NCBI GenBank assembly: GCA_010093995.1
Contig: ML992517.1
Span: 262,677 to 326,676 of the forward strand
Direction: 5' to 3'
DNA length: 64,000 bases
From: Elsinoe ampelina
Taxonomy: Eukaryota
Shown: positions 477 through 25,900 of the stretch, piece after piece
How positions within the stretch are numbered: the stretch's first letter is position 1
How the letters are laid out: the number at the start of each line of letters is the position of its first letter
Position numbers and translations under genes: made by a program
The notes under the pieces: generated by a model
Told to the model about the DNA's origin: nothing
Seen by the model: the letters and a program-made list of their open reading frames with translations, nothing else
Database searches by the model: none

Positions 477-3400
477 ATGCTAAGTATAGCTTACTCTAAC
501 TATAGTAACGACAACTATTATATAAGTAAGATCCCTCTACCCTCTACTAATAATAATAATAAACCTATCTAGTTATTCTATTATAACCTTATTCGCCTTA
601 ATAACTCTAACCTAAAGAAGAGATTATAAGAGTTAGATAGTATAATTACTCTATGTAAGGCCTTTACCTTTATTAAGTCTACCTATAATAAATAGGTTAC
701 TATATATAACTTAGTATATTTTAATACTCTTAATCTATATAACTAGTTAGACAACGTCCTTATTAAACTAAATATAGCTAATAGTACTACTAATAATCTT
801 ACTACCTAGGCCGCGTACTACTTTACTAATATTAGTAAACTTAAAACTAAACTAGCCTAGCTAAGAGCTAAGATAGAACGCACTATACTAGCCTCTTCTA
901 TATATGTATTACATTGTTAAAGAAGATACTAGACCCCGCTATCTTCTCTAGTAGTACTCTAGAATAGTTTAAGGTCTTTAAATATTAGATAAAGAATAAG
1001 ATATATACTAACGCTAACTACTTCTCTACTAAGGCTATCTAGTTTATCTACCTATACTTACGCCTCTCTAATAAAGTATATACCCTCGTTATAGACACCG
1101 CTAGTAATAATACTATTAGCGTTAATAAGACTCTTACTCTCCTAGCCTAATACTTTAAGAATCCTAACTATAAGACTATAGTACGTACTTAGTTTACTAG
1201 TCTCTTCTAGTGTAATATCTCCTTTAACTCCTTTATTAGTAAGTTTAATAAGTATACTTTCTACGCTAAGATTACTAAAGATAAATAGCTCTACTAGCTT
1301 TAGTAGAAAATATCTAGTAAGCTATATACTACCCTTATTAACTTCGATACTAATAGTCTTTCTATCTTTATTATAAAGGCTTATACTACTAATTATAATA
1401 TCTAGTAGAGTAACCTTATTACTAAGCGTACATAGGCTTTATGCCTTAGCCTAGCTATAAGCTATACCGCTACTACCTCTACTTATATATCTTATTCTAC
1501 CTCTATACTTACTACTCTAGCTACCTTCTACTCTATTACTAGAGGTGCTCTATAGCCTTTCTGTCTAACTTAGGCACTTACCTACTATATATGTAGTAAA
1601 CCTAGCTATATCTCTACTAAGTATATAGCTAGTACTTTAGAGAAGGCTACTTACGCTACTATACGCTCTATACGTATTAGTACTATAGAGGAGATATAGT
1701 AGCTCTAGAATCGCTTAGCTAAGTTAAGTAACTAAGTTAATACTAGTTCGGCTTATGAACTAGATCTAGTTTAGCCTTAGTTCGACCCTAAAATAGACTA
1801 TAAACCTACTAGTTTCTCTAGCTAGAGAAACAAGTAGCTAGAGAATAAGTCCTATTCTCTAGCGAAATAAGAGTAATTCGAGATAGATCTAGAGATATAT
1901 ACTTAATAAACAGCGTTATTAGCTACTATATCCCTGCTATTATAACTCCTATTACTATTTACAACTCTTATAATATAAGGGCTTAGTATTAGAGCGGCAC
2001 TTAGTAGCGGCTAGTTCCGCTTACGTAACGTACTTAAATATCCTATATAGCGCTTACGCCCGGGGCTTAATAGCAATTAGTTCTACTACTAACGGACTAT
2101 TTAGTTAGATAGGCGTTCTCTATATTACGATATATATAGCTTTAATATAAGGCTTTAATATATAACTACTTATGTACTATTATACTTTAAGCCTTTATTA
2201 ACACTAGCGCGCTTATTAGCGCCGTAGTTAATTATAACATCCTTAATAAGCTAAAGAGCTTTAGCTGCCCTATAGTACTAGCTAGTCCTATTTAGCTTTA
2301 AGCCTATAACAGTGTTCTAATAGAGTAAGTTATATATAGTATTCCTCTTACTACTACTATTTCTAGTAAGCTAAATAACTTTACTACCTTTCGTATTATA
2401 GATATTAGCTAATTTAATATTATTCTTAGCCTTAGCTAGCTTAAGGCTAATAGGGCTACTATTAACTATAAGTATAGCTAAGTTATATATAAAGAAGAGT
2501 TTTTACTAATAGTTATTAAGTAGAAGCTACTATAGCTAATTAAAAGACTAGAATCTAGATCTAAGCCCGGCTTAGATCTAGAAATCTAGCTTAGTAAAGC
2601 TGCCGTTTTAGTTTAGAATTAGTTTAGTTCTAGTTTAATACGTAAACTAGGTTCTAGCTTAGCTACTAAGATAGAGTAAACTAGACTATATTAACTACTA
2701 GCTCTTAGGTTAAACTTTAAGCTAAATTAGAGAGAGTTTAAGCTAATCTCCTATAGTACTTAGTTAATGTATAAGTTCTTCTACATACCTACCTACGTAA
2801 GTAACACTAAGTAAGAAAAGCTAACTATTGCTTTTATCGGCGCTACTACCTTCGTATTAGTAGCTAAATACTAAGAGAATAAGGTGTTTATAATCTTAGT
2901 AAAGAATATTAAAGATTACTACCGAATAGCCTTTAAGCTAGAACTAGACCCTATAGTAGTTCTCTCTAAAGAGCTATATAAATTTACTAATGTTTTTTCT
3001 AAGAAGTAATCTAATATACTACCTCTCTATTAGCTAGGATTCGATAACTAGATTATACTTAAGGATAGTACTAAACTACTATATATAGAACTCCTATAGC
3101 GCCTATTCTTTAAGAAGCTTAATATAGTAGAGTAATTTATTTATAAACACCTTAATAAAGGCTTTATTATACTAAGCTCTACTAGCTATTTCTTACCTAT
3201 TCTCTTTATTTATAAGCTAGGCGGAGGTCTCTACCTCTATATTAATTACTATAGCCTTAATAAGGTAACTAAGTAAGATATCTATCTACTACCTCTTATT
3301 AAAGAAACACTTACGCGCGTAAGTAAGGCTAAATAGTTTAGTAAGATTAATATCTATTAAGCCTTCTACCGCCTCTATAACTCTATTAATAGCGAGGATC

Positions 3401-6130
3401 TAACTATATTCTTTATATATATAGGTAACTTTAAGTAGTTAGTAATGCCTTTTAGCCTTACTAACGCCTCTATAGTATAGTAGAGATTTATAAATTAGAA
3501 TTTCGTTAATATACTAGAGCACTTTATATTAATCTATCTAGATAACATTCTTATCTATACTAATAGTACTTGCCGAGAGTACGCTAAGCATATTAAGCTT
3601 ATACTCTAGAGGCTTTATAAATTAGGCCTAAACACTAACATTAAGAAGAGTAAGTTCTACCTAATAGAGGTAAAGTACCTTAGTATTATTATTAGCCGAG
3701 ATAGAGTTAAGATAGACCCTAAGAAGGTAGAAGCTATTCGAGCATAGAAATAGCTAGCCCCTAGTAATACTACTTAGGTAAGAAGCTTTATTAGCTTCTA
3801 TAGCTACTATTACTACTTTATTAAGGGATTTAGTACTATTACTAAGCTATTAAACAATCTACTTAAGAAAGACGCTACGCTATAGAACGATAAGTGCACT
3901 ACTATATTTAATTATATAAAGCGTACTATTATAAGTATATCTATCCTTATATACTTTAATTACTTAAAGTAGATAGTTCTTAAGACTAACACTTCTAATA
4001 CTACTACCGCTGGAATTCTATTATAATATAACAAATCTAATATTCTTTAGCCTATTACCTTTTTTAGTAAGTCTATAAACAAAGCTAAATATAACTACGC
4101 TATCTATAACAAAGAACTACTAGCTACTATTTAAGCCTTTAAGGAGTAGGCCCTTAAGCTTATAAGTACTTAATCTAATAAGGCTATCTATATCCTTACT
4201 AACTACTAATCGTTAATATACTTTATAAAGACTTAGAAGCTATTACGCTACTAAGTACGCTAGGCCCTCTACCTTACGTAGTTTAACTTTAAGATTATAT
4301 ATAGGCCTAGCGCCGCTAATAGCAAAGCTAATATACTTACAAGAAGGAATAGAGATATACTATACTCGAAGGAAGACTCTAACCTCTACTAGACGTTATT
4401 ACTATATAAGGTGCTTAATCTATACATTATTAACGAACTAAATCTAGGTCGTATCTAAACTAAATTACTAGCTCGAGTCGAACTAGTATCTAGTTTGTTA
4501 TCTAGTTTATAAACTAGTTCGTTATCTAGCTTATTACCTATTTTACTTTCTATTTTATAACCTATATCGGCGCCTATTTCGGCTACTAAACTAGGCATCT
4601 ATATAGCACCTATAATAGCTATAGAAGAGCCTTTACCTCTTTTCGAAGAAGTAGCTAAAGCTAACTTATAGAACGCTAAGTGTAAAATAGTTCGAGGCAT
4701 CTACTATATAATAGAGACCTCCCTAAAGAGGAAATAGCTACTATTAACCGATGTTACTATTAATAAAGGGATATTATAGGTCGCTAGCTAACTATTTATA
4801 CTATAGTTAATAGCTATAAAGGTTATCTAAGAGGTCTATATATCGAAGAACTATATATATACTAGAGCTACTAAAACAGCTACTATAATTAAGACTACCT
4901 TTTTTATTCTAGGCTATAATAACTTTATTAAGAGGTTCGTTACTAATTACTATAACTATAAACGCTTAAAGGCTTACTATAGCTTACCGGCTGGCCTTCT
5001 ATTACCTTTGTCTATTCCGGAAAGGCCCTAGTAATATATTATAATAGACTTTATTACTAGTCTACTCTTAGCTAATAGCTATAACATAGTACTCTATGTT
5101 ATTAATTGTTTATCTAAGGAATAACACTTAATCCCTTACTTCTCTAGAGATAGAGGGACCTTAGCGTTTAAAACTACTAAGTTATTATTCTTCTACGTAT
5201 AGAAACTATATAGCCTACTAGATAGTATTACCTCCAACTATAGTCCTTAGTTCGTTAGCAACGTATAGAGTAGGCTCTACTAGATCCTAAAAATTATAGC
5301 TAAGCTCTTAACTGCTAGCTACTCTTAAACTAATAGCTAATTAGAGGTTATAAATTACAAGTTTAAGTAAGTTATTTATTTATATACTACGCGCTTTAGT
5401 AATTAGACCCTTATTCTACTAGTAGTAGAGTTCTCTACTAATACTAGCCTATTAGAAAGTACTAAGTTATTACTCTTTAAGGTTACTAGAGGATATAAGT
5501 CTAGGCTAAGCTTCTAGCTCCCCTCCGATATACTATTAATAAGAGCTAAGCTTAATAAGGCTAATATCCGAGCACTTACTAAATAACTAAAGGAGGCGCT
5601 ATCTATTACTAAGGTAAACCTCGCTATTGCCTAATTATATATAGTAGAATAGGCTAATAAACACCGCTAGCTAATAGAATTTAAGGTAGGCGATTTAGTT
5701 TAGTTATTAATAAAAAACCTCTAGCTTTAAGGTAATCTAAAGCTACTACTAAAACACGTTAGTCTATATAAGATCTTAGAGAAGTATTTAAGGCTATTAT
5801 ATAAGCTAGAGCTTCTACTAGCGCTATAACAAATTTACCTAGTATTCTATACTAACTTCCTAACTAAGTACCCTAATAACTCTCTTCTAGGCTAAGCCTT
5901 TAAAGAGCTACCTCTAATAGAGGTCGATAGTAAAGAGAAGTATAAGGTAGATGACATAATTAATATATATATGTTATAAGGGAAGCTAGTTGCCTATATA
6001 AGCTAGAAGAGATATCTAGAGAATCTTACCTAGTAGCTAATTAACAATCTTAAAGAAGTAGCTAATATACTACGTAACTATCTAGACTCTTACACGGATA
6101 AGCTAAGGCCGAAATAGATTAATAGATAGT
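477..6130 (+). pseudogene. gag-pol remnant of A copy 1 (protease, RT, RNase H, integrase, chromodomain); ends approximate
   Basis: AFI(D)T(G)A protease motif ~2195, IYLD(D)ILIY at ~3532-3560, IY(D)KELLA ~4100, DFIT(G)L(P) ~5048, chromodomain-like Y(E)VDDII..(W)K(G)Y..LT(W) at ~5940-6060. Many TAA/TAG stops. Confidence 0.9.
1974..2160. repeat. Solo LTR (187 bp) of another family inserted in A copy 1
   Basis: Absent from A copy 2 at the equivalent site (~27495). Flanked by 5-bp TSD TATAA (1969-1973, 2161-2165). Ends tataag...ttaata are compatible with RIP-mutated TG...CA. Confidence 0.85.
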
Positions 6131-6475: not shown

Positions 6476-6671
6476 TATTATAGCGTAGGTTACTTTCTAG
6501 TATTAAGTAGGGATACTTAGGCCTTATTACTATTATTATATTAAAGCTACTAGTCTATTACGTTATATATATCTATTACTATATTAGTTGTCTATAATAC
6601 TACCTATATATCTTAATGTTTCTTTATAATAATAGCTATAGGTTAGGTAACCTATATCTTAGTCTATAATA
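6476..6671 (-). repeat. 3' LTR of E
   Basis: Direct repeat of 38347-38542; adjacent PPT complement actattctctctct. Confidence 0.92.
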
Positions 6672-9006
6672 ACTATTCTCTCTCTACTAGTATCTATCCT
6701 AGATATAAATAGAAACTAGCTTATACCTTAGCTAGATACTTACCTATCTAGATAGCTCTTCCTTAGAGACCCTAAATAGGACTACTCTTAGCTATATAAA
6801 CTACTACCTATTAGACTCTCTTTAATAATAGATATAACTATAAGTGTTAAAAGATACTAGTATATTCTTATAGTTAGCTACTATCTCCTCTACTACTATA
6901 CGCTACTATCTTTATATATTTAACCTACTTCTAGTAAGTCTCTTATTCTTATTCTCTAATAGCTCTAATAGTTTCTCTTTCTTCTTACTTTTCTTAACTA
7001 TCTCTTCCTTATTATTCTTTATTATTATTATATCTCTAGAAGTAATTATACTATAAGAAGTAGAGTTAGAATTATTATAAGGTACTAGAACTAAGTTTTA
7101 CTTCTTATAGTAAAAGAAAGAATATACTCTAGTATAGTACTACTTCTTATATATCTTAACCTTATTCTAAGCTATATATACCTAGACCTTAATCTACTTA
7201 TAAATCTTAGTTACTTTTACCTAAGCTACTACTAAGTTATTAAAAAGAAGAATAGTAACTTTTTCTACTATAGTTAAATTATTCTAATAAATATACTTAA
7301 CTAATATATTACTTACTAGACTATTAATCTTTAGATAGATAGCTATAAGAAAAGTAAGATATATAGACCTATATATATTTAGCTTACTTAAAGAAGTAAG
7401 GGTAGTAAGCTTCTTTTTTATATATATATTAACTAGGGAGAAGTAGATACTATTCTTATTCTATTCTAGAGTCTTATAATTAGTACTAATACTATAGTAC
7501 TATAGCAGAAAAGTATAGTAAATACTAGTAGTAGGACTAGTAGAACTATATAAAGTATAAAGTATAGTAAGATAAATATTATTAGCCTTATAGAGAAAAA
7601 GCTTTTACTTAGTACTATATTTAGCCTTATCTTCTAAAGTAAAATACTAAGGAGAGATATTAATAATAGAAGTATTATTTAGAATTTTATAAGCCTTAAG
7701 GTCTATAACCTATTCCTTTATATAGTAATATATACTATAGACTATAATAGTATAATTACTCTTAGTCTTATTATCTAAGCTAAGGAAGCTCTATATAGTA
7801 TTAATACTATAACTAGTAGCTAGTAAACTAGGGTTAATATTAATATAGTAGAACTAAGTATAATTACTCTTCTAAGTATACTTAGTATAGTAAGAGTAGA
7901 AGATTAACTAAATATATCTATTAGAGTAATAAGCTATATAGAGATAGTAGTACTTAGAGTCTATATATATAGCTTACTAAGTAAAAAAATAAAATATATT
8001 TCTTAACTATCTAAGCTATCTCTTACCCTTAGAAAAACTAAAGTAGTAGTAGTATATCTTAATCTTCTCTAAGAAAATATCTATAAGATCTATATTAAAC
8101 TAAAACTTAAAGATATTTATACTAATATTTCTATTAGCTAACTACTTATCTAAAAGACCTTAATAAAAACTATTAAGAATTACTTTATATTAGTTAGTAT
8201 TAATATATTATTCTAGAAGTATAGTCTTATACTTAAAAGTACTTCTTTTAGTAGCTACTTACTTATAATAAGCTAAAGGAACTAACTACTAAAAGGTCTT
8301 TTAGTATATCTCTATTATATCTAGGGTACTATTAAGGTAGAAGTTATACTAATAGTTAATATAATAGTAAAGAAGATTCTAAGAAATATTAGAGAGAAGA
8401 TATAGATAATAGACTAATATATAGGTATATAGGTAGTAGATAGAGCTTTTAGTACTTAAATCCTTATTACGCTATTAGTCTATAATAATAGCTAGCTCTA
8501 TAGTACTAATACTCTTCTTTAATAATATAGCTATCTTTAATTCTTATAAGATACTCTTATATATATATATCTTCTTTAGATTCTCTTTACTAGGTTTAGT
8601 AGTAGTATCTTTACCTCTATCTATAGTAAGTATAGAGATAGAATAGTCTACTAAGATAAACTCTCTATTATCTCTAATATAACACTTCTTACTTAGGGAC
8701 CTAGTATAACTCTTATACTTAGGCTTCTCTTAAGGCTCTTTAATAGACTTAATAATTCTCTTATCTTCTTCTTCTTTATTCTATAGCTAATTTTATAGAT
8801 ATATATAAATAGACCTATATACTAAATCCTTAAAGTAGATAGAAGAAGCTATATAAGATTCTAGATCTAAGCTAGGCTTAGATTTAGAAATACTAGAGTT
8901 TACCTAAGTAGTAATATTATTCCTTATAGTAATACTAGTATACTATATAATTATAATAGTAATCCTAGCTAAATTAGACTCTAATATACTAAGCTTACTA
9001 TAAGTA

Positions 9007-9428
9007 TATTACGAACTATCTAAACATAGCCTACGCTAGTAGTCTAAGCTAAGCCGAGAATAAGGTAGTTCTACTTCTATAGTAGTATAGTACTAAGGTA
9101 AGAGTCGGAGAAGGTATGTCTTATAGATAATAAAGTACAATTAGATAGTATTATAAAGACTAGCCTTAGTAATACTAGTATTTACTATCTAGACGAGATT
9201 AACTATAGTACTTATAGAAGGTAAGAACTATATACTATATATAGTACACTCTATAGCGTAAGAGTTTAGTAGTATTAGAGTATTAGTAGTAAAGCTACTA
9301 TCCTATAAACACTATAAACTATTTCCTAATTAGGCTACGTTACGTGTCCTAGGTTGCCTTGTCTTAGCGTAGAGTTAATTAGTTGTCTATAACTTGTTCT
9401 ATAGGTCTCTTAAGAGACCTTCGTAATA
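9007..9428 (-). repeat. 3' LTR of B
   Basis: Direct repeat of the split LTR 22976-23279 + 29548-29665. Confidence 0.95.
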
Positions 9429-9525
9429 CTATTCCTCTTCTAGCTAGAGTCGTCCTTAACGTTTATAACTACGTTGTTCCTTAGGTTATCTCTTTTCTTT
9501 ATTTTTCTTATAGTTATAGCTAACT

Positions 9526-10110
9526 ATAGACAGCTTTTGTGTTAATAAGAAGAATAGAAGCTAAAAACCTCCGCGGTCCTAGAAGTAGCGTTATATCGAC
9601 ATAGCTAACACTTTATTAACGCCTAAGAATATTACGATAGTTACTTATATAAACTGTCTAGAATCGGGTATAGTATATTATTTTAATTAGGAACGGTTAG
9701 TGAAATGCGCTAAGTGCTAGAGGCATAACCGAAAATATAATAGTACTTTCTCGTTTAAGAAATATTACTAGGTAGGTAAGTAAAAGAAAGTTATAAAGGT
9801 AAAGAGCCTTTAAAAATAAAAGGAGATAGCTTAGCTAAGGAGGAATCTTATCGCAGCGTAATAGGCGCTTACTATAGCTAAAGTAGAGAACTTGTCTCTA
9901 TAGAAGAATATTATAAAGCTAGATAAGAAGTCTAATTAGATACTTCGTTATAAGATAGAAGCGTTAGGCGCCTTTAACGTAATAGACCCTTCTACTAAAA
10001 TCTCTTTAGGAGACTACAACTTCGTAGTAGACGAGATGCCTATTATTTAGATAGTTAACTAGTCCGATTAGGGTTTAGACCCTAGTAGATCTTTAGAGCT
10101 TATCGGGTAA
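9526..10110 (+). pseudogene. Antisense accessory ORF of B: Zn2Cys6-like cluster plus coiled coil, ~194 aa before RIP
   Basis: One 585-nt frame from ATA (RIP of ATG) to TAA. 9646-9738 reads (C)INCLESGIV(C)YFN*ERLVKCAKC*RHNRK(C), i.e. C-x2-C-x6-C-x9-C-x2-C-x6-C with 3 Cys intact and 3 as TAT. A K/E/R/L-rich helical stretch follows. Confidence 0.75.
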
Positions 10111-13100
10111 GATACTCTTCTAGTTTCTAGGTGTTCTTACTTTACTAATACTCTTTCTAGTAGATTAAGTAGTAGCGTTTCTAGTTAATAAGCTTATAAG
10201 TTATAACTCTCTCGATCTTATATCTAGGTTATTACGTCTCTTTATCTAGTTTAATTAGTCTAGGTATAGCGTCCTATAGTGCCTTTTCTAGTAATAATAT
10301 ATAAAATACTAAGTAGATCCTTATATATCTTAGTAGTTCTAGTTTGTATATGTTTTTATTTTTCTTTTTAAGGATCCTAAAAGGTCCTAACTTAGTGTAA
10401 TTTAGTTTTTTGCTTAGTCTTTTAGTTTTAATATTTTTACTAAGGAGGTAAACTTTCTTTCCCTCTTATAGAATTAGTCCTATAATTCTTTTTTAGTTAG
10501 TAAATTCTGCTATTCTTTGTAATATAAATACTATATTATAGTATAGCTAGTCGTATAACTTTTTAATATTAGTTACTAATATATTAGTGTCCTTAGATAT
10601 TAGCTTAATTCTAAGCGTATTATAGTATAGATCTAGGTATATTCTATAATTTACATAAAAGAGTAAGACTCTATTTACTAATTTTCTATTATTAATAGCA
10701 AGCTCTATAAGTAGTAATAGTATTGCCTAAGAATCTTGTTTATAGTTAAGGTAGTAACGTAGGTACTATTCTAGTACTTAATTAGCTCGCTTAGTTTGTC
10801 TATCTATTTATAGATAAAAGAAGGTCGACAATTTATGTTTAACTCCTAGTAGGTCTATAAATAATTACTAGAATTGTAATATAAATAACTTATCCCTATT
10901 AGTAATTAGATCCTATAGTACTCTATACTATAAAACGATTATTCGGAGGAAGGTAAAGGCTATATCCTCTATAGTTACTATTATCTTATATAGTATAAAG
11001 TAGTAATACTTCGTAAACCTATCTACTAGAACTAAAATGCTATTATACTTTACGCCTATAAGAGGCTCTTCTAATAATAGTAAGAGTCCTATAAAGTCTA
11101 TTATAACTAATTACTATAGTTTATCTAGTAGTAGTAAGAGTTATAGTAGGCTATATAGCTTATGTTATAAGTACTTAGACTTATAGTATATATCGTATAT
11201 AGTGATATATGTCTTAATATCGTTTTGAAGTCCTTTCTAGAGGTAGTTTTATATAATAAGTTTAATAGTCTTATTAATCCTACTATGTCCTACTATTAGG
11301 TTATTATAGTATATTTAAATAACTTTTTGTTTTTGTTCTTATATAAGCTTCTAGGTAAGGCTATATAGTTACTCTACTTTCGGGTACTTATAGACTAAAG
11401 TGCTATCTTACTACTTTAATATAGAGGCCTCTATTATTGTTATATTCTTTAAGTAATCTAGCTATTAGCTAAGAGCGTCTACTCCGCTATTCTCTAATTC
11501 CTTAATATAATAAATCTAAAAGTTGTAGCTTATAAGTGTTTCTAACTATTAAATCTATTATCTATTAAGAACCTTAGTTATTGTCTAATATAGAAGGTTC
11601 TTATAGTTAGTATAGACTTATATAGGTAAGGTTATTCCTTCTAGGTATACTCTCTACTTACGGAATGCTTCTATAATTATAAGTAGTTCTTTGTTATATA
11701 TATTATAGTTAAGTTTAGGTCTAGTTATTTTTTATAAGTAGTATATAATTAGGTAGCGTTGTCCTTATACGTCTTTCTACGCTAGATATACTTCTATTAC
11801 AAAGTCTAAGGCATCTAATTTCTAGTAGTACTTATTAGTCTAGGTCGTAGAGTACTAGTATAGGTACTATTATAAGTCTAAGCTTTAGCTCCTTAAAGGC
11901 CTACCTATATTCTTCGTTAAAGACAAAGCTAGTTTCTTTCTTCGTAAGGTTAGATATTAGCGTAGCTACTTTAGAGAATTCCTTAATAAACTTATAGTAG
12001 TAGTTAAAGAACTCTAGTAGCGCTTAAACTTCTTTAACTATAGTAGGTTCTAGCTAGTTATTTACTAACTTAATCTTCTTTAGATTAGGTCTAATGCTAT
12101 TAGTAGATATAATATAGCTTAGAAATTATATCTTATATTTATAAAACTTATACTTAGAGAGCTTTACTAGTAGGTCTTTTTCCTTTAGTTTTTATAGTAC
12201 CTTATAAATATGTCTTATATATTTATTATATATCTTAGAGAAAACTATAATATTATATAAGTAAGCTAAGATAAAGTTATTAAGGTACTTCCTAAGAGTG
12301 TTATTAATTAATTCTTAGAAGAATATAGGTATATTAGTTAGGCTAAAGAGTATAACAAGGTACTTATAGAGTCCTTATCTAGTCCTAAAAGCTATCTTCT
12401 ACTCTTTACTATCCTTTATCTATATTTAGTAATAGGCGTCCCTAATATTAATTATAGTAAACTATTTAGCTCTAATAAGTTAATTCTAAAGTTTGTCGAT
12501 CCTTAGTAAAGAATAATAATTCTTTCTAGTAATTATATTAAGTTTCTAGTAATTAATATATAGTTGTAGTAATCTATCCTTCTTAGGTACGAAGAGTACT
12601 CTATATATAATTAGTAATTTTAATAGTTATATAAATCCTTTCTATAGATACTTATTAATATATTTCTTAAGGAAATCTTTCCCCTTTTTTAATAATAGTA
12701 TAAGACCTTAGTAGTATATTAGGGATTTACTCTCCTTGAAAGGTATTTTATAATTCTATATTTTATTAGGGTGGTTAAGTGGGTAATTACTATACTCTTT
12801 AGAGTATAGTAATTACAATGTAACTTTTCGTGAAATTTTCGTGTTTTTTGATATTTTAACGTGCATTAGTAAGCGTATTTTACTAATAAAGATATTTTGT
12901 CTATACTATCAAAAATTCTGCATTTTCTAGTACTATTTTTGCTTATGTAATCTTAGATCCTGATTTTTAGTAGTGATTTCAAATTTCTTTCTTCTTCTAA
13001 AAATCAGGATCTAGGATTACGTAAGCGAAAGTAGTACCAAAAAATGTAGATTTTTTTATAGTATAGAAAAAATACTTTAGATTATAAAAGAAGCTTACTA

Positions 13101-13790: not shown

Positions 13791-14525
13791 TATTATTATA
13801 GCCTCTTAGATAAGTAGTTAATCCCTCCCTGTATATATCTATTATTAGTACTATATCTACTAAGCTAGCTATATTTTGTCGTTGTTTAATATAGTAAGGT
13901 AGACTTCTAGAGCTTAAGTCCCTTAATAGCTATAAAGTCTAATAATCCTCTATTAGTTATACTAAGTAGTACTATATACTTATATTAGTATAACTATTCC
14001 CTCTAGATATAGCTACGTATTAGCGTTAAAGATAAACACGAGTTATATAGACTTATCTTATTATGTCCTAGTCTAGTAGTAGATGTATATTATTATATAA
14101 TTTCTCTATATCCCTATAAGGTATACTTTAAGTCGTCCGCCCGGTAGTAGTATATTATCGTTGTTATTATTAGATAAGTTCTTATCTATGTTATTATATT
14201 ATAGTTATTTAATGTATTTTTCGTTATATTTCTCTTTGTCGCTACTGTCTCTAGTATAGTTATAATTAGTAAAGCTATACTAAGTACATTCTCGTACTTA
14301 GCTATAGAGAGTAGTACTACCTATCTTAATTACTAAGAAGTCTATAGTATACTCGAGACTTATAGCCTCTTCTCTAAGTACATTATATAAGTAGATAGTG
14401 TAGTACTACTTATAATTTAGATTTATACATTTCTAGAGCGATATATAATATACCTTTCCTTATAGTTTGCTATAAGAGCTAAAGGTAAGACTACTATATT
14501 ATTATATAGCACTTGCGTCCTAATA

Positions 14526-14756
14526 TGTTAGGGGTAAATTATATTAATACTAGTAAGTATATATAATAATTAACTTATAGTAGTATAAGGATAGCTCTTA
14601 ATTAGTAGTACAAATAATACTTAAGGAAGCTAACTTCCTTAGCTAGTATATAGTAAGATTAGAGCCTACACGTATAGGCTATCCGAAGCTAGCTAGACTC
14701 TAGATCCTTATACCTAATTAGAAGCTTACACCTTATCTCTAAAAATCTCTATAATA
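14526..14756 (-). repeat. 3' LTR of C
   Basis: Starts TGTTA; direct repeat of 21379-21609. Confidence 0.95.
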
Positions 14757-15128
14757 TTACTTCCTTCTCTAAGCTAATGTCCTTAGTAGCTAGCCTTAAT
14801 AAAAACCTATTAGCCTTTATAACTATTATAGGAAAAGAGTATCTAGTATTACTACTTTATCTACTTATATTCCTTATATAATTTTTACACAGTCTATATA
14901 TAATTAGTAAGGTTATTGTAGCTTTATCGCTTCTAGAAAGGTAAGTAATATACGCTTTATTTAGGCTTTATTTAGGATTTTTACCTCCTAGGCCCTTAGT
15001 GCTAGGACTACCTTTATTACGTAGGACAATAACAATAAATATAGCTAGAATATATTTCTATAATGTACCTACACTTCTTAACTTCCTTAATAACACTTAT
15101 TACATATACCGCACCTTCTTTGCCTATT

Positions 15129-16112
15129 ATAGTTGCCTTTAGTAGACTAATATATATTAGCTCTACTACCCTTAGTTACGCCTATAACTATGCTTTCCGC
15201 TACTAAGTTACCTATAACATAACTATACTCTATATACTGACTTATATACGCTATATATATAAGATTATAAAGCATAGTATAATTTATAGTAGGCTAGACC
15301 TTAAGAGGTATAACTACTATACTAGAGGTAATAGATCTTCTTATACTCTAGTAAGAACTTTACTAAGTAATACTCTTCTACGACATTACTAATACACTTA
15401 GGTTCCTATTGTATTTAATAGTTGTATTAAGTATATATACTAGTTCTATAATACTTATATCTAGGCTATTAATACTAGTACCTTTCCTAGGAATAGGAGA
15501 AGCTAAGACTCTACTATCTAGCGTATAGACTTAGCTCTTATACGTGCCTAGTATACCCTTACTTAGTAGCTTAAGTATTATAGGCATATTATAGCTCTTA
15601 GAGAAAATCCCTTAGAAATGCTAACTAAGGTGCCTAAGTCTAGCCCTAACATAGAGAGGCTATAGCTATTAGAGTAGAGGAGAATTACTAATATCCTAGA
15701 ATAGATAGCTATTTAGTAGTTTAGCTATGTAAGTTTATACTCTACTTGCTTCTAGTTTGTATACTAATAGCTAGAATAGCCTAGTCCTCTTAGGTTTAGT
15801 AGTAGAGCTCCTAGTAGTAGGCCTTATCTATACTTTAGGCCTAGTAGTAGTCCTAGGGGTAGTAGTAGTAGTAGAGGTAGAAGTAATAGTAGCAGGGGTA
15901 GTAGCGTAAGTTTATACCTGCCTATTACCTATATCGTATACTAATATCGTAGCTAGGGTAGTAGGGGTAGTAATAATAGTAATAGGGATAGGGATAGCCC
16001 TAGCCCTAATAGAGATAGGGAGGATAGAGAGAATAGAGATAATAAGGATAGTAATAATAGCAAGAATAGTAATATAAGCTAGAGCCTACCTATTATCTAC
16101 ACCGCTTACTAA
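15129..16112 (+). pseudogene. Antisense, apparently three-intron accessory gene of C: six-Cys motif, helical middle, Gly/Asp-rich tail
   Basis: Six TAT codons spaced x2-x10-x7-x2-x7 at 15243-15344. Three GTAAG...TACTAAT...TAG units at 15351-15401, 15729-15779 and 15906-15956. agt/aat runs are consistent with RIP of ggt/gat codons. Confidence 0.65.
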
Positions 16113-16539
16113 TCTTATAGTTTAGAATAATAAGGAAGATAGAAGTAAGAGAGGTAATAATAGTAAGGAGTTTAGTAGTTTAAGTAATAAGGATACTAAT
16201 AACTAGATAGACGTAGTATAATCGCTGTTATGTATTATATTAATCGCTTACTAATAGCATAGCTAGGATAAAGAGAATAACTTAGATATTGTTATTAATA
16301 AGGATAAGAATAATAAGTAGTCGTCGCGCTTGTCGCTTATAGGTCAGCTATATAAAGCATATATAGTATAGGTATTTCTAGCATTATTCTTGTAAAGATA
16401 CTAGGCTAAAGAGCTATAGATAAAAATAGACAGTCTTAATCCTTAAGCTAATGTTTCTATTAAAGTTATAAAGCTAAAGTCTCTAGTACTAAGTATCTTA
16501 TTATAAGTATATAATAGTATTACTACAAGTTATTTATTA

Positions 16540-19500
16540 TTTACTACTAAGTTGCTTATTCTTCTCTTAACCCTAGCTATGCTTACTACTTTCTCTAAAC
16601 TTCCTTAATAAGTTATCTATCTCCTTAAAGTCTTTTTCCTTTATCTATAAGCTTTTAGTCTTATTATATCCTTCCTACTTAAGTAGATATTTCTTCTTTC
16701 TTACGTATATAGTATACTCTATAAGAATCTTCTTTATATACTAAACTTATTCTCTATCTTCTACTAACTCTAGGGCTCTTATGTTTAGTAATTCTTCCCC
16801 TTCCCTAGGGTAAAAGAGCTTTAGAAGAGATATATAAAACACAACGTGTATATAATAAGAGCTTAGTAGCTATAGGTAATATACCTAAGAGTTAATTGCT
16901 TCTTTAATATAAAATAGACCTACGAATTTGTCTATTAGCTTTCTACTTAGAGCTTTAAGCTTAAGGTTCTTTATGTTTAGCTATACTAAGTCCTTTAGCT
17001 TAAACTTTATTAGGGTATACTTCTTATTATAGTACCGGGTTTAATACTTAGCTACGGCCTTTAAGCACTCTTAAAGATTTACTTATAGTATTTATATATT
17101 TTATACTTGTTATATAGCTACTAGTACTTCCCCCTCTAGCTACCTATCCTTAGGTAGGTTATAGAGGATTAGGTACTTTCCTAGAATAATAAAGAACGGA
17201 GTTTTCTTTATTGCTATATATATTAAGTTATTATATATAAATTTAGCTATATAAAGCAAATTTGGCTAGTCTTTAGAATACTCTCCTATAAATACTTAGA
17301 GGTAGTATTTAAGTGTTTAATTCTAGCGTTCTATTTGCATATCGGTTTATAGATAGAAAGCTATACTTAACCTACGCTTTACCTATAGTTAATAGCAAAT
17401 TTTAGTCTAGAACTAGCTTATAAATAGAGATTCTCTATCTAATATAATTCTTTTCTATATACTATATTTACAAATTACATACTTAAAGTAGACATCTATA
17501 AAGTCTTTTATAGTCTATATCTCCTTAGCTATAATATAGATTACTAGCTTTAATAATCTATTATAAATTACTAAGATTATGTTATATATGCTACTATTAT
17601 ATATTATAGAGGAGAGCTTTATAATAAAGTCTAGTATAACTTCTTTAAAGATATTAGAAAGAATAGGTAGAGATAATAGCTTACTATATAGTATATACTT
17701 TAGTGCTTTTAACCTTTAGTATATGCTATATGTCTTAATATACTTATACACTTCCTAATCTAATAATAGCTAGTAGTAGTATCTACTAATTAGATTATGC
17801 GTTCTTATAGCGCTATAGTAGCTAGCTATATAAGAGTTATAGTATTAATATAAGATTTCTTATCTTAGACTTAGTTTATTAGAAATATAGAGCCTACCCT
17901 TATATATAAGAGTTTTATCTTTATATTTATACTATGCTAGCGACTTCTTACTGCTTTAGGTATGCTCTTCCTGCTCTAGATTAGCTATATACTTTAAAGT
18001 AAAAGTATTCCTCTACTAAAGTATATAGATAGTCTATAACATTAAAGTATCTCTTACTAATATAAGTTTACTAGTAATAAGTACTCTTACTAGACAGCGT
18101 AGTATATATAGTATATATTCTATAGCACTAGTAGTTAGGCTAGATCTACGTTTATAGGTTATAGGCTATTAACCTATAACCTCTAAGCTATACTTAGGAG
18201 TAGAGCTAATCCTACTAACAAGTTATACTCTTATAGTAACTAGACCTAATCCTAGTTTACTTACTAAGTTTAGCTTATGTTATAAGGTAGAGAGTAATCT
18301 TATAAGCGCGTAGTTCTCCTTAAAGTAGTCTACTCTCCTTAAGGGCCTATTAGCTAGATTTAACTTGCTAGAGTAGTACTAGACTTCGAAGTTAAAGGCT
18401 CCTAGGTAGGACACCTATTACGCCTAGCGCGAGTTAAGCTTACTTATGTCGTATATACCTTATAGGTTATTATAGTTACTTAGAACCTATATAGTATACT
18501 AAGTGCCCTTAAGGTAGTAACGCTACTACTTAAAGCAATAGACAATTACGTATAGTTCTTAGTTATATACCTCCTAGATATGCTCTACTCTCTAAAGCTT
18601 CTTAGAGATAAAGACAACTAGGTGCTATTTCTCGTCTTTATATAGCTAGGAGAGAATACCTACTACTATAAAGGTTAATATATCTATCTCTAGGCGTATT
18701 AGTAGCTAGGGGTCGAAATGTTATAGTAAAGGCGCTTCTATAAAGCATGCTTTAAGCTAAATAAAGCTAGCTTCTATAGCTTCTAGCTATATAAAGGTAG
18801 ATTACTCTTTCTTTAAGAGATCTATTATAGAGGCTATTAGTTTTGTATAATTCTAAATAAATCTATAATAGAAGTTAGTAAAGCTAAGGAATAACTAAAG
18901 CTCCTTAATGCTAGTCGGTTAAGGCTATCTAGAGATAGTTACTACTCGCGTAGAATTAGCGTAGATACCTCGTATATCTATAATAAACCCTAAGAAGAAT
19001 ACTTACTTTATAGTAAAGATATACTTAGACAGGTTTATAAATAGTTTAGCCTATCTTAACTATTTAAGAATAGCGCTTACTACTCGCTAGTAGGCATCTA
19101 GATCTTTGCTATAAGTATAGATAAGAATATTATTTAGGTATACTATACATAGATAGTCTACTAATCCTTTAAGAGTCTAGTTAATATAGGCCTAGAAGGT
19201 AGTAGGTATATTAGTAAGCTTAAAAGGTATAACTAGGTATTTAAAATAGCTATAATATATTCTAAAGGTAGTCTTCTACTTATCTCCTAGGCTAATACAG
19301 ATTCTGTTATAAGTATCCTTTAGATCTAGAGTTATATAGTAATATATGCCTAATAGGTAGTCTAGCGTCTTACTAATTAAGGAGAGTAGGTAGTAATCCT
19401 TTATAGTAATAGAGTTAAGGCCCCTATAGTTAATATATAAATAAAAGGTACTATCCTTCTTTAGCATAAATAGGATAGGTACCCCTACTAGGCTTATACT

Positions 19501-21330
19501 ATAACGAATCTAGCCCTTCTTAAGTATATCTTTAAGGTATAATTATAGTACCTTAAGCTTATATAAAGAGAAGTTATAGAGCAGGCTATAAGGTAGCTCC
19601 TTACCTAGTAGAATAGGAATTTAATAATTCTCTTCTTTAGTAGTAGGCAGGATTTTAGTAGTATTAGTATTAAAGACGTCCTAGTAGTCTAATAATGTAT
19701 CTAGTACCTAATTTTCCTAGGAGACACTTGCGATTTAGACGTAGATAATAACTTTCTTGCCTTAGAGGTTACTATAAACTACACCTAAGAAGTATATATA
19801 GCTCTCCTCTTATTCTAGCTACTAGATTATTACTATCTAGATACGTAACTTGTCTTTAATACCCTAAGCCTAAGTCTGCTATCTATAGTCTAGCTATATA
19901 GCTTCTCTTTATAAGAAGGAGTTACCTAAGAGTAGCTCTAGCTCTTCTTTATCTACTCTATAAGTAATAGTTTTAACCTAGTATATTACGCCTCGGTTAT
20001 TAGTAAGTATTACCTATATCTTATATATAGTATATATAGCTTTCCTTTCTAACTCTACCTAGGCTAGTTAAGGTAGGTTACTTAGTACTAAGTTAAGGTT
20101 TATCTTAATTACTATATACTAGCTAATAAGGCTAACCTCTACTTAAGGATCTAGAATAACTTCTACCTTATAGTCGACCCTAGTTGCTTCTATTATAATG
20201 TAGATATAATATATCCCCGGTAAAATGTTAATAGCTCTATACCTTATAGTTCCGGAGGTAACTACGAAACTTAGCCTTTTCCCTAGGCCTGTCTTACGTA
20301 AGTAATAGGCTTCTTATTAGCGTCTAAGAGTTAGGCTTTCTTTCTATACTTATTTATATAGTAGCCTATCTTCTTATAGAAGTAGTATTTAACTTTCGAC
20401 TTATAGGAGAAGTCTTTCTTAGGGGCTAACTCCTCTTTATATTAATCCTTACGTTATAGCTTTTAGCTATATCTAGCTAAGTAATTACAATAGTTCTATA
20501 GCTTACCTATGCCCTATAGGTTATACTCTAGCGTAGATCCTAAGATAATAAGACCTTCTCTTGTTAGAGGTATAGTATAGTAGTTTATAATTACTTACTA
20601 AAGTTCGAGGCGAAGTTTTAAAAATAGGTACTATATATAGTACTTCTCTAAGTAGGGGGGTAGCTAGTCCTTAATTGTTTCTAAATAGGTAGTAAAGGCC
20701 CTAATACTCTATCTAGGAAGTTATAGCGTAGTAGTATACATAGTAGTTGCTTCTAGAGTGTAATTAATAGAATTAGAGAGCATATCTAGTAGAAAGGTCT
20801 TAAATTAGCCCTAGGTATACGATTTTATAAGTGGCTTGTACTTTATATAAGAGTATTATACTTCGTATAGGTCTCTTATAAGATACTAACTTACCTAAGT
20901 AACTTTCTCTTATTCTAACTAGAAGTTCTCTAGAGTAAGCTAGAAGGCTATCTTATAGCTCTAAGTAAATTCCTTATATTCTCTTAGGTGTTTCTCTTTA
21001 TATTTCTTAGAATTCTTTAGCCTTATACTACGCTTTATATACGAAGGTCCTATATCTTAAGAGGTATAGCACTTATAACTTCTAGCTACTAATCTTGTTC
21101 CTATATTACTTTAGATCTTAATACTATTTAGATTTACTCCTCTCTTAAGGAAAGCAATTTGTTTCTTAATCTATCGGAGAGTCTATTCCTATAGGAGATA
21201 ATCCCTTTACTATTCTATATTATAGATATGCTTCTCGAGCGAGGTAGTTACTACTAGTAGTTCTCCCGGAGTAGTTATAGGGGTTCCTATACCCTTCTTA
21301 TTACTAATAGAGCCTAACTATGTCCTTATA
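16540..21330 (-). pseudogene. gag-pol remnant of C; ends approximate
   Basis: Zinc knuckle K(C)YF(C)KKIG(H)YINK(C) ~20345-20400. The ORF-track peptide 19276-19467 is an RT fragment (KKD..LYINYRGLNSITIKD..LDLKD). IVYL(DD)ILIY ~19120-19146; chromodomain KYLLK(W)EGY ~16660-16700. Confidence 0.92.
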
Positions 21331-21378
21331 ATAGCTATTCTTAGACTACTTCCTAAGTAGAGTAAGGAAGTATTATTA

Positions 21379-21609
21379 TATTAGGGGTAAATTATATTAA
21401 TACTAGTAAGTATATATAATAATTAACTTATAGTAGTATAAGGATAGCTCTCGATTAGTAGTGCAAATAATACTTAAGGAAGCTAACTTCCTTAGCTAGT
21501 ACGTAGTAAGATTAGAGCCTATATATATAGGCTATCCGAAGCTAGCTAGACTCTAGATCCTTATACCTAATTAGAAGCTTATACCTTATCCCTAAAAATC
21601 TCTATAATA
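21379..21609 (-). repeat. 5' LTR of C
   Basis: Direct repeat of 14526-14756. Confidence 0.95.
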
Positions 21610-22975
21610 TAATACTTTATTTTAATAATTATATATTAGTAATTATCGCTAACTACCTTCTAAGGTTAGTTAATATCGCTACTAATTATAGAAAGCCTTT
21701 CTAGGTTAACTCCCTAGTCTAGCTATTTTATTAGTTACCTACGCTTAGATAGCTTATATAGGAACTAACTAGATTCCTACTTATCTAATAAGTAAATATA
21801 ACAAGAGTTATTATAATATACTATCTATAATAGCGTCGCGTATTAGCTCTACTACTTATTGTTAGTTATAGAGATATTAAGTATAATATCTAAAGAGAAT
21901 TCTCTTATCTCTTAAGTTATTATAGATCTCTTCTATGTTTCCTTACCTACGCTAAAGGTTATTAGGTCTTCTATAGTAGTGTTAGCCTTTATCTCTACTA
22001 GCCTAGCAACTATTATATATAATCTATTAGCTAGCGCCCCTTATTAGTAGTCCCTAGCTCGATACCTAAGTCTTTTATATTTAAAATATAAGTTGTCTCG
22101 TTTATACTTCTCTCTCTCTTTTCTACTAAGGAACTTTCCTCTATAGCTATAGCCTTATACCTATAAGGGGTAGCTTTCGCGTATAGCGTTAAGTTCTATA
22201 GAGTCTCTATAGTTTCGAGAAGAACATATATATCTAGTATTTACCTTATATTCTCTATAATATTCTATACGTCGTTCGTAAAGTCTATTATTAATAGCAA
22301 TTATAGTGTCTACTAGTTCTTAAAGGCTATTAGGTAGCTTAAGTATTATTTAGTCTTTAACTAAGTCGCTTAGTCCTTAGTAAAATACTAAGTGTTTAGT
22401 ACTATTATTCTAGTCTAGGTATATTATAAGTTATTAGAATTAGAAATAGTACTAGGCTATAGACCTACGTTATTATAGTTATTAGATCTTTGTCGTAGTA
22501 ATATATTCCTTATCTAATACGTTAAAGACTTACTTAATCTTAGCCTAGAATAGACTAAAGCTTTTAAAGATAGCCTTTATGTCTAGACTTAGTTACCTAT
22601 CTAGGTAGCCTTCTATATAGAGTTTAAACTACCTAAAGGTAGTACTCTTAAGCTATATACTAGTATAGAGGACCTTAGCTATATTATTAGCGTACTTATC
22701 TCTCTCTAGAGTAAAGAAGGCCTTAAGCTAGATAAGGAAGTACCTTAGGTAGGCGCGGTCTCTATAGAAGAGTTCTATCTCTACCTTAGGCTTACCTCGA
22801 CCTTTGCCTATACTAATAGACCTTCTATATTTACTCGAGGTTAAACTAGTAGTAGATATATCGTTAATAGTAAGTCTTCCTAGCTTACTAGTAATTAAAG
22901 ATATTAATAGTAACTTAGAGTAAGAGTTACTTATTAACCTTATAACGTACTATACTATAGTAAGAGTAGTTAAAA

Positions 22976-25900
22976 TGTTATAAACTATCTAAACATAGCC
23001 TACACTAGTAGTCTAAGCTAAGCTAAGAACAAGGTAGTTCTACTTCTATAGTAGTATAGTACTAAGGTAAGAGTTAGAGAAGGTATATCTTATAGATAAT
23101 AAAGTATAATTAGATAGTATTATAAAGGCTAGCCTTAGTAATACTAGTGTTTACTATCTAGATAAGGTTAACTATAGTACTTATAGAAGGTAAGGACTAT
23201 ATACTATATATAGTGTACTTTATAGCGTAAGGGTTTAGTAGTGTTAGAGTATTAGTAGTAAAGCTACTATTCTATAAACTAATTACGACTAGCAAGACAA
23301 GAGGTTTATTATGTCTATTTATTAAGATATTAAGACTTAGAAGAAGAAGAAGAAAAGCTAGTATATAAAGCACGCGTAATATCGAGGGTAGAGTAGCTAG
23401 AAGCCTAGGCTATAATACCGAGATTATATAACTAATCTAAACTAGATCCTAACTAAATCTAGTTCGTATCTATCTCGTATTACTACTCTCTCTCTTAAGC
23501 GTGTTTACTCTTAAACGCTATTATATATTATTTATTAATCTATTTCGGCCTTAGCTTATCTATGTAAGAGTCTAGATAGTCGCGTAGCACGTTAGTTACT
23601 CCTTTAAGGTTGTTAATTAGCTACTAGGTAAGATCCTCTAGATAGCTCTTTTAGCTTATATAAGTAACTAGCTTCCCTCGTAGTATACGTATGTTAATTA
23701 CGTTATCTACCTTATACTCTTTCTTACTATCGATCTCTACTAGAGGTAGTTCCTTAAAGGCTTAGCCTAGTAGAGGGTTATTTAGGTGCTTAGTAAGGAG
23801 GTTAGTATAGAACATAAAGTAAATCCTTTATAGAGTAGCTAGTAGATCGAGCTTATATACTAATAGCAACTGTTTTTTAAGGATCTTATAAGGACTAACA
23901 TGCTTTAGTAGTAGCTTTAGATTGCTCTATAGCCGAAGGTTTTTCGTCGATAACTACACTAAATCGCTAGCTTTAAACTCTATTAGCTAGCGGTGTTTAT
24001 TAGCTTACTCTACTATTTATAACTAAGTAATAGTAAGGCTAGCTTTAGTAATAGTAAGGGCTTCTTCTAGTTATTTAGTAAGCGCGCGAATTTTAGCCTT
24101 ATTAAGCTTAGCTCTTGTTAATAGTACATCGGCAGGGAGCTAGAAGCTTATTCTTAGCTTATATCCTCTAGTTACCTCGAATAGTAATAGCTTAGTACTT
24201 TCCGAGGGGTTAGCGTTTATAGAGAACTCTATAACTAGTAGAATAAGAGTCTAATTACTAAACTATGTTATATAGGATCGAATAACTCGTTTAAACTCTT
24301 AGTTTATAACTTCTAATTAGTTGTCTATTTAAGGGTAGCTAGTAGTAGATAGCTTAGCTATAATCTTTAGGATCTAGTAGAGTCTCTTTTATACGTCGCT
24401 AACGAACTAAGGGCCGTAGTTAGAGGTAATACTATCTAGTAGGCTATATAGTTTCTACACGTAGAAGAATAATAGCTTAGCTATCTTAAACGTAGAGGTT
24501 TCTCCTTCTCCCTAGAAGTAAGAGATTAAGTGTCGCTTCTTAGATAAGTAATCGACAACACATAGTACTACGTTATAGCTATCTACTAGGGGTAGGCTAG
24601 TAACGAAGTCTATAGTAATATGTTACTAAGGCCTTACCGGAATAGGTAATAGCGATAGGAGGCTAGCTAGTAAGCTATAGCGAGCCTTTAAGCGCTTATA
24701 GTTGTAATAGTTAGCTACGAACCTCTTAACAAAGTTATTATAGCTTAGGATATAAAAGGTAGTCTTAATTATAGTAGCCGTTTTAGTAGCTCCTTTATGT
24801 ATATAGTCCTTCGATGTATAGACTTCTTAGATAACCTTTACGGCTATTAACTACAGCACGAATAGTTAGCTAGCGACCTATAACATCCCTTTATTAATAG
24901 TAACATCGCTTAATAGTAGCTATTTCCTCTTTAGGAAGGCCTCTATTATATAGTAGATGCCTCTAACTGTTTTGCACTTAGCGTCTTATAAGTTAGCTTT
25001 AGCTACTTCTTTAAAAAGGAGTAAAGATTCTTCCGCGGCTAAGATAGGTACTACGTAGATACCTAGTTCGGCGGCCGAAATAGGCGCCGATATAGGTAGC
25101 GAAATAGGAGGCAAAATCGGTAGCGAACTAGATAGCGAACTACTCTATAAACTAGATGCTAAACTAGATCTTAGTTCGGCTTAGATTAGTAATCTAGTTT
25201 AGATGCGACCTAGATTTAGTTCGTTAATAATGCGCTAATCTAGCACCTTATATAGTAGTAGCGTCTAGCGTAGATTAGAGTCTTCTCTTAAACGTAGTAT
25301 ATCTCTATTTCTTCTTATAAGCGTATTAGCCTTGCCGTTAGCGGCGCTAGGCCTATATATAATCTTAAAGTTAAACTATGTAAGGTAGAGAACCTAGCGT
25401 ACTTAGAGGCGTAATAGCTTCTAAGTCTTTATAAAGTATATTAAGAATTAGTAGTTAGTAAGAACGTAGATAGCCTTATTAGATTAAGTACTTATAAGCT
25501 TAGAGGCCTATTCCTTAAAGGCTTAGATAATTACTAGTAGTTCCTTGTCGTAGATAGCGTAGTTACGTTCGGCTTTATTTATAGATTTACTAAAAAAGGT
25601 AATAGGCTAGAGAACGTTAGACTCGTTATATTATAATAGAATTCTAGTAGTAGTAGTGTTAAAGGCGTTAGTCTTAAGGACTATCTACTTCGAGCGATTA
25701 AAATATATAAGGATAGACACACTTATAATAGTATACTTTATGTAGTTAAATACAGTAGTGTACTTGTCGTTTTATAGTATAGTATCCTTCTTAAGGAGAT
25801 TATTTAGTAGCTTAGCGATAGTGCTAAATCCCTTAATAAAGTAGCGATAGTAGCTATAGAAACTAAGAAAAGCTTCTTACCTAAGTAGTGTTACTAGGAG

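Follow-up and report, generated by a model that had tools for sequence, protein, structure and literature searches.

A likely relic of an antisense accessory gene in a mutated Ty3/gypsy retrotransposon of Elsinoe ampelina, and an antisense six-cysteine gene family in its intact relatives

Accessory genes are rare in long terminal repeat (LTR) retrotransposons, and for most of them no function is known, and introns outlast retrotransposition only when they are antisense to the genomic RNA. The subject of the present analysis is a 64,000-nucleotide stretch of the Elsinoe ampelina genome (assembly GCA_010093995.1, contig ML992517.1, positions 262,677 to 326,676 of the forward strand), which is referred to as the window throughout and in which all positions are counted from its first letter, and within it a Ty3/gypsy retrotransposon, here called element C, whose strand opposite to pol may once have carried an accessory gene in the interval from the end of pol to the 3' LTR. 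The closest described arrangement is that of the Boty-like elements of Botrytis and Sclerotinia, for which passages in PMC8365987, PMC7264820 and PMC4227169 describe a gene named brtn, which is antisense and separates pol from the 3' LTR; Zhao et al. 2011, Virology 417:248, is cited there as the source. As far as these passages go, Boty resembles element C in being a fungal Ty3/gypsy element with a chromodomain and with an extra gene that lies opposite to gag-pol and between pol and the 3' LTR, but the likeness is one of position and strand only, and the copy in our window is mutated beyond function. For plants, passages in the review PMC7264820 describe antisense open reading frames (ORFs) between pol and the 3' LTR of Grande1, RIRE2, Retand and PvRetro13 (see also PMC11963269). 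These share with element C the place and the orientation, the presence in most copies of the family and, in those passages, a label without function; in contrast to element C, they belong to non-chromovirus lineages, and a sequence relation is neither shown nor expected. A figure legend in a survey of fungal chromoviruses (PMC2864245) also has an “additional ORF of unknown function” drawn. The candidate in element C lies between the end of pol and the polypurine tract and 3' LTR, i.e. at the place of the aORF-3R type. No paper on a zinc-cluster antisense gene family in retrotransposons was found among the open-access papers searched (titles, abstracts and some passages).

We regard it as probable, with a rough probability of 0.6, that the spacer of element C holds the dead relic of an antisense accessory gene, as intact relatives of this element carry it at the same spot. 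The wider antisense family in these relatives is a more interesting result than the element C copy. Through the best intact relative of the element C pol (P0004; E 4e-89, 36% identity over 40% of the query), 79 unmutated gypsy loci were reached in metagenome contigs, with a median G+C content of 49%. In each of the 11 loci where pol is flanked by an LTR pair, a spacer of 1.1-2.1 kb separates the end of the pol match from the 3' LTR, and the antisense strand of the relatives' spacers contains conserved ORFs with the pattern C-x2-C-x6-C-x10/11-C-x2-C-x6-C. The encoded proteins have about 200-360 residues and consist of a six-Cys cluster, a patch of basic residues, a long helix and an acidic tail, and the gene begins close to the inner border of the 3' LTR and heads toward the end of pol. 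It is antisense to pol in every relative where the strand was testable. Between loci, 985, 847 and 1901 substitutions are found at antisense codon positions 1, 2 and 3, respectively (26 pairs), and this third-position excess argues that the antisense frame, and not a sense-strand shadow, is under purifying selection in the relatives. Long shadow ORFs opposite the real gene are also present there.

The gene of this family has short introns of about 50 nucleotides (nt). At locus L038, the ATG lies 185 nt from the LTR, a 52-nt GTAAGC..CTAAC..AG unit is positioned one base before the first Cys codon, and after joining over this unit the frame stays open for 361 codons. The same arrangement, with a GT[AG]AG..branch..AG unit whose end is no further than 22 nt upstream of the first Cys codon, was present in 14 of 14 loci with an ORF that starts at the cluster, and the intron ends one base before this codon in L032, L038, L040, L041, L043, L048, L050, L052, L054, L056, L058 and L063; L003 and L009 also have the antisense gene with a short AT-rich intron, whose length in these 14 loci is about 50-60 nt. 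The units are 47-67 nt long (one was called at 113), cover all three length classes modulo 3, and have a G+C fraction of 0.22-0.65 (at most 0.42 in 12 of 14) within G+C-rich exons. Judged by these sequence features, they look like real introns, and a short spliceosomal intron would persist in these elements because it is antisense to the genomic RNA.

With the second exon, 70 homologues with 44-99% identity were obtained, and a comparison with 1.84 billion representatives gave 124 clusters at E up to 0.001. Among the longer members, those with a name are hypothetical proteins of Pisolithus, Melanogaster and Astraeus (Boletales), and the UniRef label of one member reads Zn(2)-C6 fungal-type domain protein. 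The antisense six-Cys family is without a Pfam model, and in comparison with Pfam Zn_clus (PF00172) 4 of 13 ORFs reached 10.6-16.3 bits, which is under the cut-off of 21. With the Gal4-type Zn(2)-Cys(6) cluster of PF00172, the relatives share C-x2-C-x6-C-x5-12-C-x2-C-x6-8-C near the N-terminus and, after it, a stretch of basic residues, a possibly dimerising helix and an acidic tail as in the layout of Gal4. In the AlphaFold model from the relatives' alignment, a long helix (94-151) is predicted at pLDDT 96-97 and the acidic tail contains another helix, whereas the cluster region appears as two helix-strand units of middling-to-low confidence and the basic stretch is disordered. The relatives thus differ from PF00172 in the sub-threshold score, in the low-confidence cluster model and in having no solved relative, as a Foldseek comparison of the model with the PDB gave no match at E up to 0.001. 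The Gal4-like six-Cys protein may be a dimeric, nuclear, sequence-specific DNA-binding regulator that is made by the element, and its target would probably be the element's own LTR or neighbouring promoters.

Judged by its sequence, the clearest relic of the antisense gene in our window is found in another retrotransposon, element B, whose pol lies at about 10343-12671 on the minus strand. A half-mutated six-ligand cluster Y-x2-C-x6-Y-x9-C-x2-C-x6-Y is encoded at 9646-9738 on the plus strand, with intact Cys codons at 9655, 9706 and 9715, and sits opposite to the pol of element B, between pol and a repeat at 9006-9428. For the comparison, the pattern of repeat-induced point mutation (RIP) was applied in silico to the genes of the relatives and completed in the window, and profiles were made from the mutated translations. 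The first simulated profile placed the scanning windows of the element B spacer (9121-10380, plus strand) at ranks 1-5 of 3164, and the second, in which stops were recoded, at ranks 2-6 of 3165, where an unrelated scanning window on the minus strand came first. A codon model that was trained on the mutated relatives, and that put the true frame first in 34 of 35 leave-one-locus-out tests, gave element B +35 bits in the correct frame, compared with -34 to -47 bits in the other five. These matches indicate that elements of this genome carry the antisense gene, and the decay of Cys to Tyr codons is directly seen here.

How does element C compare with this? Its pol is on the minus strand (16906-19689), and the plus strand is thus the antisense strand. 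The element is bounded by a 237-nt direct repeat with 95% identity, i.e. the 3' LTR at 14521-14757 and the 5' LTR at 21374-21610 (both minus strand, in element orientation), and the gag-pol region at 16531-21373 is a single continuous minus-strand frame full of TAA/TAG stops. From the end of pol to the 3' LTR, the spacer covers 1.76 kb (14758-16530), and a polypurine-tract-like run at 14760-14770 (minus strand: AGAGAAGGAAG), immediately inside the 3' LTR, shows that the element's own 3' signals bound this spacer. Family C has one copy in the window, but a DNA run, X1, gives access to others: with 852 contig pieces placed, the depth is even over 14804-17400, without a step at the border of spacer and pol, and the spacer is therefore present in most family C copies. 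The candidate gene runs on the plus strand. Its putative start is a stretch of 42 codons without a stop at 15225-15350, and the codon at 15225 is ATA here and ATG in most copies (15227 A>G in 7 contigs). Six codons further downstream begins the region for which the original prediction had assumed six Cys codons that were converted by RIP, and indeed six TAT codons are found at the predicted spacing, at 15243, 15252, 15285, 15309, 15318 and 15342, in the frame that enters the first intron-like unit.

The choice of Tyr 15285 as the third ligand is not supported, as it results in a first loop of 10 residues, while this loop has 6 residues in most relatives and 8 in L024 and L064. His 15273 fits the loop of 6, and the degenerate motif at 15243-15344 is then Y-x2-Y-x6-H-x11-Y-x2-Y-x7-Y, which after reversal of the mutations would be C-x2-C-x6-H-x11-C-x2-C-x7-C. 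L038 has the spacing 2, 6, 11, 2, 6, and the spacing allowed among the relatives is C-x2-C-x6(8)-C-x8-26-C-x2-C-x6-C, compared with x2, x6, x11, x2 and x7 in element C. With the mutation pattern completed, the motif is the only one of 18 matches to the family spacing in the window that has no internal stop. Moreover, the first four motif codons equal the full-mutation product of the Cys-Val-Arg-Cys start that is common in the relatives, and with the cluster of element B as query the motif of element C ranks 47 of 8491 windows. The Cys codons of element C would have been turned to TAT by RIP, and the motif would be homologous to the cluster of the relatives. At codon 15423, further downstream in the candidate frame, TGT is present here and TAT in 2 contigs with 366 of 459.5 depth, so that a Cys-to-Tyr conversion within this frame is directly seen.

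Apart from the motif, it is the differences between copies that argue for a coding past of the spacer. In X1, there are 241 variable places, and the codon-phase counts, here and below, rest on the best-supported 40 of these. Among the 17 differences in 15100-15950 within this set, 13 are at third positions of the candidate frame (P = 3e-4) and 12 are synonymous in it. Such a third-position bias would result from the high third-position G+C content of the relatives' antisense genes, which is 0.69-0.81, compared with 0.57-0.68 in pol. Likewise, a codon model that was trained on the mutated pol ranks the candidate frame above all others in a row of six 480-nt windows (14758-15837); the margins reach 19.8, compared with median margins of 9.6-23 for true pol frames. 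Toward its end, the candidate enters a charged, purine-rich low-complexity tail, which covers 15957-16073, continues past it and is separated from the end of pol by about 450 nt. This stretch is 73% purine, of an Arg/Asp/Gly/Asn type and free of stops in the candidate frame. The acidic low-complexity tail of the original prediction is therewith plausible as to the kind of stretch, whereas the likeness to the acidic tails of the relatives is one of composition only. Between 15780 and 15905, a triplet-repeat low-complexity stretch of the AGT/GGT type precedes this tail, also without a stop in the candidate frame, and would be Gly-rich on the condition that its TA was once TG; within this repeat, TGG is present at a loose end of another family C copy.

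Which other readings of the spacer have to be considered? The most serious one, which we regard as rather unlikely, is that the spacer is non-coding 3' sequence with a degenerate tandem unit, and that splice signals and Tyr pattern have arisen by chance in TA-rich mutated DNA. Three units of the type GTAAG..TACTAAT..TAG opposite to pol had been predicted, and they were located in the sequence: U0 at 15351-15401 (51 nt, GTAAGA..TTACTAAT..TAG), U1 at 15729-15779 (GTAAGT..TACTAAT..TAG, 46 or 51 nt depending on the acceptor) and U2 at 15906-15956 (GTAAGT..TACTAAT..TAG, 47 or 51 nt). A uniform length of 51 nt is obtained only with the predicted acceptors, as alternative AGs would end U1 also at 15770 or 15774 and U2 also at 15952. 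A fourth, 47-nt unit at 16074-16120 has ATAAGC at the place of the donor. In the window, however, GTAAG occurs 161 and 156 times and TACTAAT 74 and 66 times on the two strands, and the strict pattern GTAAG-N20-45-TACTAAT-N2-15-TAG is matched 8 times on both strands together, compared with 4.0 times (standard deviation 2.1) in 100 dinucleotide shuffles. Five of the eight matches are within 15351-16220, all on the plus strand, but two of these five are in purine-rich low complexity, and U1, U2 and the units at 16074 and 16216, which are 142-177 nt apart, resemble one another beyond the splice signals. As the units are partly mutual copies and partly low complexity, they amount to about two independent events, and the clustering is of borderline significance only. 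A 54-nt match at 10107-10160 on the plus strand (GTAAGA..TTTACTAAT..TAG) is antisense to a stretch of element B that by eye is chromodomain-like, and this position opposite to a coding stretch demonstrates that intron-like units do arise by chance here.

The exact six-position [C/Y] spacing of the original prediction occurs four times in the six frames of the window, stop-free runs of at least 45 codons occur 158 times, and the six motif codons are six of the nine Tyr codons among the 42 codons of 15225-15350. The motif alone, or the openness of the frame alone, is therefore not beyond chance, and the non-coding reading also agrees with the lack of profile homology that is described below. What it leaves unexplained is the bias of the copy differences to third positions of one frame, the choice of this same frame by the pol-trained codon model in six consecutive windows, the presence of a real gene at this spot both in relatives and in element B, and a motif that is at once free of stops and in agreement with the family spacing.

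For these reasons the coding relic is preferred, but a considerable number of results weigh against it. Several sequence comparisons gave no support. The plain profile of the relatives' protein gave no match to the plus frames of element C. In the first simulated profile run, the candidate took rank 324 of 3164 when unspliced and rank 1929 when spliced; in the second, in which stops were recoded, its ranks were 1486-1990 of 3165. A profile search, which the original prediction had proposed as a check, thus did not pick out the candidate with either the plain or the mutation-simulated profiles. Comparisons of the spacer with the 79 loci by tblastx and blastn, plain and after simulated mutation, returned low complexity only, Pfam gave no plus-frame match in 14400-21800 at E up to 0.1, PF00172 included, and the translated candidate (residues 1-230, stops as X) had no match among 5.8 billion proteins, of which only lengths 185-592 were covered. 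With the motif of element C as query, the cluster of element B was only at rank 301 of 8493.

The motif itself is weakened by the fact that none of its six places has a Cys codon today, which also distinguishes it from PF00172, that the third canonical position is CAT, which cannot be derived from a Cys codon by RIP, and that by-eye comparison with the consensus of the relatives outside the ligands gave agreement in 2 of 28 residues. The relatives-trained codon model gives the candidate frame -24 bits over 15063-15350. In the low-complexity tail, this model favours another plus frame with a poly-Val reading, which is taken as a composition artefact. The true pol frame of element C has 5 of 13 differences at third positions, i.e. 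no excess, so that the bias seen in the spacer may stem from something else, and it also has to be kept in mind that the phase counts cover but a part of the variable places. The G+C content by codon phase gave no signal in the candidate exons, but this signal is weak even in pol and thus uninformative. Altogether, element C resembles the antisense six-Cys family in place, strand, charged low-complexity tail and, if His 15273 is a ligand, six-ligand spacing, and differs from it by the absence of a profile match and of an intron upstream of the motif, by His at ligand 3, by a last loop of 7 instead of 6 residues, and by intron-like units where relatives with contiguous ORFs have none. The earlier claim of an antisense accessory gene therefore applies as to kind, place and strand, which are real in the relatives and in element B, but is without profile homology in element C, and the degenerate zinc cluster fits the relatives in its spacing once His 15273 is included, while no Cys codon is left and profiles do not support it. 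In summary, the original prediction was right in kind and strand, and plausibly right on the mutated zinc cluster and the tail.

The relatives-trained codon model also touches the question of the strand, since over 14758-15597 it favours the codon-aligned minus frame over the candidate frame, with margins of 3.5-21, and thereby conflicts with the pol-trained model. In principle, the coding relic could thus be a third ORF in sense orientation downstream of pol, with the plus frame as its codon-aligned shadow; a weak profile match in the minus frame (2.3 bits, the fourth-best distinct locus) points in the same direction, and the long shadow ORFs of the relatives demonstrate that such pairs of frames exist. 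Nevertheless, we consider a sense ORF improbable. The differences between copies would then be first-position and non-synonymous, the pol-trained model favours the plus frame, and in all relatives with a testable strand as well as in element B the gene is antisense.

If the plus strand of the spacer is a gene relic, are the three units its introns? We doubt this. In favour of introns, the units have the signals met in fungal introns, i.e. a GT donor, a CTRAY-type branch 5-30 nt before YAG and a length of about 45-70 nt, and they are 43-47% purine, compared with 56-73% in the surrounding tail. Removal of U0 would set a Pro-Arg stretch at the distance that the basic motif of the relatives has from the last ligand, which concerns two residues only. 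As all three units are 51 nt long, the frame is identical with or without splicing, and the 8 in-frame stops that they contain are all TAA/TAG, which RIP can make from Gln or Trp codons. All four differences inside U0 and U2 within the best-supported set (15356, 15395, 15920 and 15932; a small sample) are in third-position phase, and this retention of the coding phase speaks against introns. Moreover, the U0 donor is GTAAGG in most other copies, which is weaker than GTAAGA. Three sequencing runs that were presumed to be RNA yielded no aligned sequence. The positions do not fit either: U0, U1 and U2 are all downstream of the motif, where the L038 group, the L055 group and L003 have contiguous ORFs without introns, whereas at the place of the conserved intron in the relatives no GT[AG]AG donor is found 40-130 nt upstream of 15243, and the nearest upstream AG, by eye, ends 35 nt before it. 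The predicted splicing of three introns is thus not supported, as both their place and the coding-phase differences in U0 and U2 speak against it. An alignment of U0 with the conserved intron of the relatives, in which the cluster would follow the unit, was also considered and rejected, since the codons past 15402 by eye misfit the spacing in any frame, and an equation of an FPR..RR stretch near 15483 with the SPRGGEKRKK motif of the relatives was dropped because it concerns two residues only. With regard to the fourth unit, X1 contigs of other copies skip 88 or 112 bases at 16038-16160 (joints 16038>16127 and 16047>16160); these lengths are not multiples of three, and the fourth unit is lost with its flanks.

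Several intron-like units within 900 nt on one strand, together with a Gly/Arg/Asp-rich repeat as in many cellular proteins and the established fact that introns survive only in antisense orientation, could also be expected if the element had captured, in antisense orientation, part of a host gene that had several short introns and a region rich in Gly and Arg. This is the least probable of the readings: no plus frame has a protein or Pfam match, the units are paralogous and not independent, and a capture is not needed because the relatives have an element-specific gene at this place. The preferred reading remains that of an element-borne antisense gene, of which nothing functional is left in the window copy, as its start codon is ATA and its frame contains 21 TAA/TAG stops, including 12 in the 109 codons of the middle part (15402-15728).

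This decay agrees with the surroundings of element C. The RIP dinucleotide signature extends over the whole AT-rich 64 kb (TA/AT 1.8-2.2, (CA+TG)/(AC+GT) 0.04-0.31, G+C 23-36%), and the entire window is mutation-saturated repeat DNA. It contains five Ty3/gypsy pol copies, which apart from those of elements B and C belong to element A (2824-5613, plus strand), element D (24107-26834, minus strand) and element E (39466-42030, minus strand), and LTR-like repeats that are common to several of the elements suggest nesting. In the six frames of 14400-21800, RVT_1, RT_RNaseH_2, RT_RNaseH and SH3_Tf2-1 are over the Pfam cut-off in one minus frame, and Integrase_H2C2 is under the cut-off in this same frame of element C. 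The pol frame comprises 1000 codons without a frameshift and with 74 TAA/TAG stops, the SH3_Tf2-1 match ends near 16812, and a stretch that was recognised by eye as chromodomain-like follows to about 16530. The differences between copies of element C in X1 are almost all transitions. Element C thus is a dead Ty3/gypsy retrotransposon with a chromodomain-like end of pol and heavy RIP (C-to-T and G-to-A). Elsewhere in the window, the top score of the relatives-trained codon model is that of 6601-7440 on the minus strand. This frame is rich in Lys, Glu and Asn, lies downstream of the pol of element A and runs opposite to it, and it may be the same kind of gene or charged low complexity, and 48961-50880 also scores high with this model.

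What would such a gene mean? As a tentative idea for which the odds are clearly below even, a clade of fungal Ty3/gypsy elements, from Boletales to this genome, might encode its own antisense, intron-bearing, Gal4-like regulator between pol and the 3' LTR and thereby tune its own or host promoters, and family C might be a divergent branch that gained short introns by duplication of an intron together with an exon. Methodically, gene relics in mutation-saturated DNA can be recovered when RIP is simulated on intact relatives, as was the case for element B but not for element C, and the long spacers between pol and LTR in fungal gypsy elements are not to be annotated as junk. If true, an element-borne, spliced, antisense DNA-binding regulator would make the control of element expression testable, i.e. 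the DNA that is bound and the activation or silencing of the LTR, and the intact copies in the relatives could serve for tests of such LTR activation or silencing.

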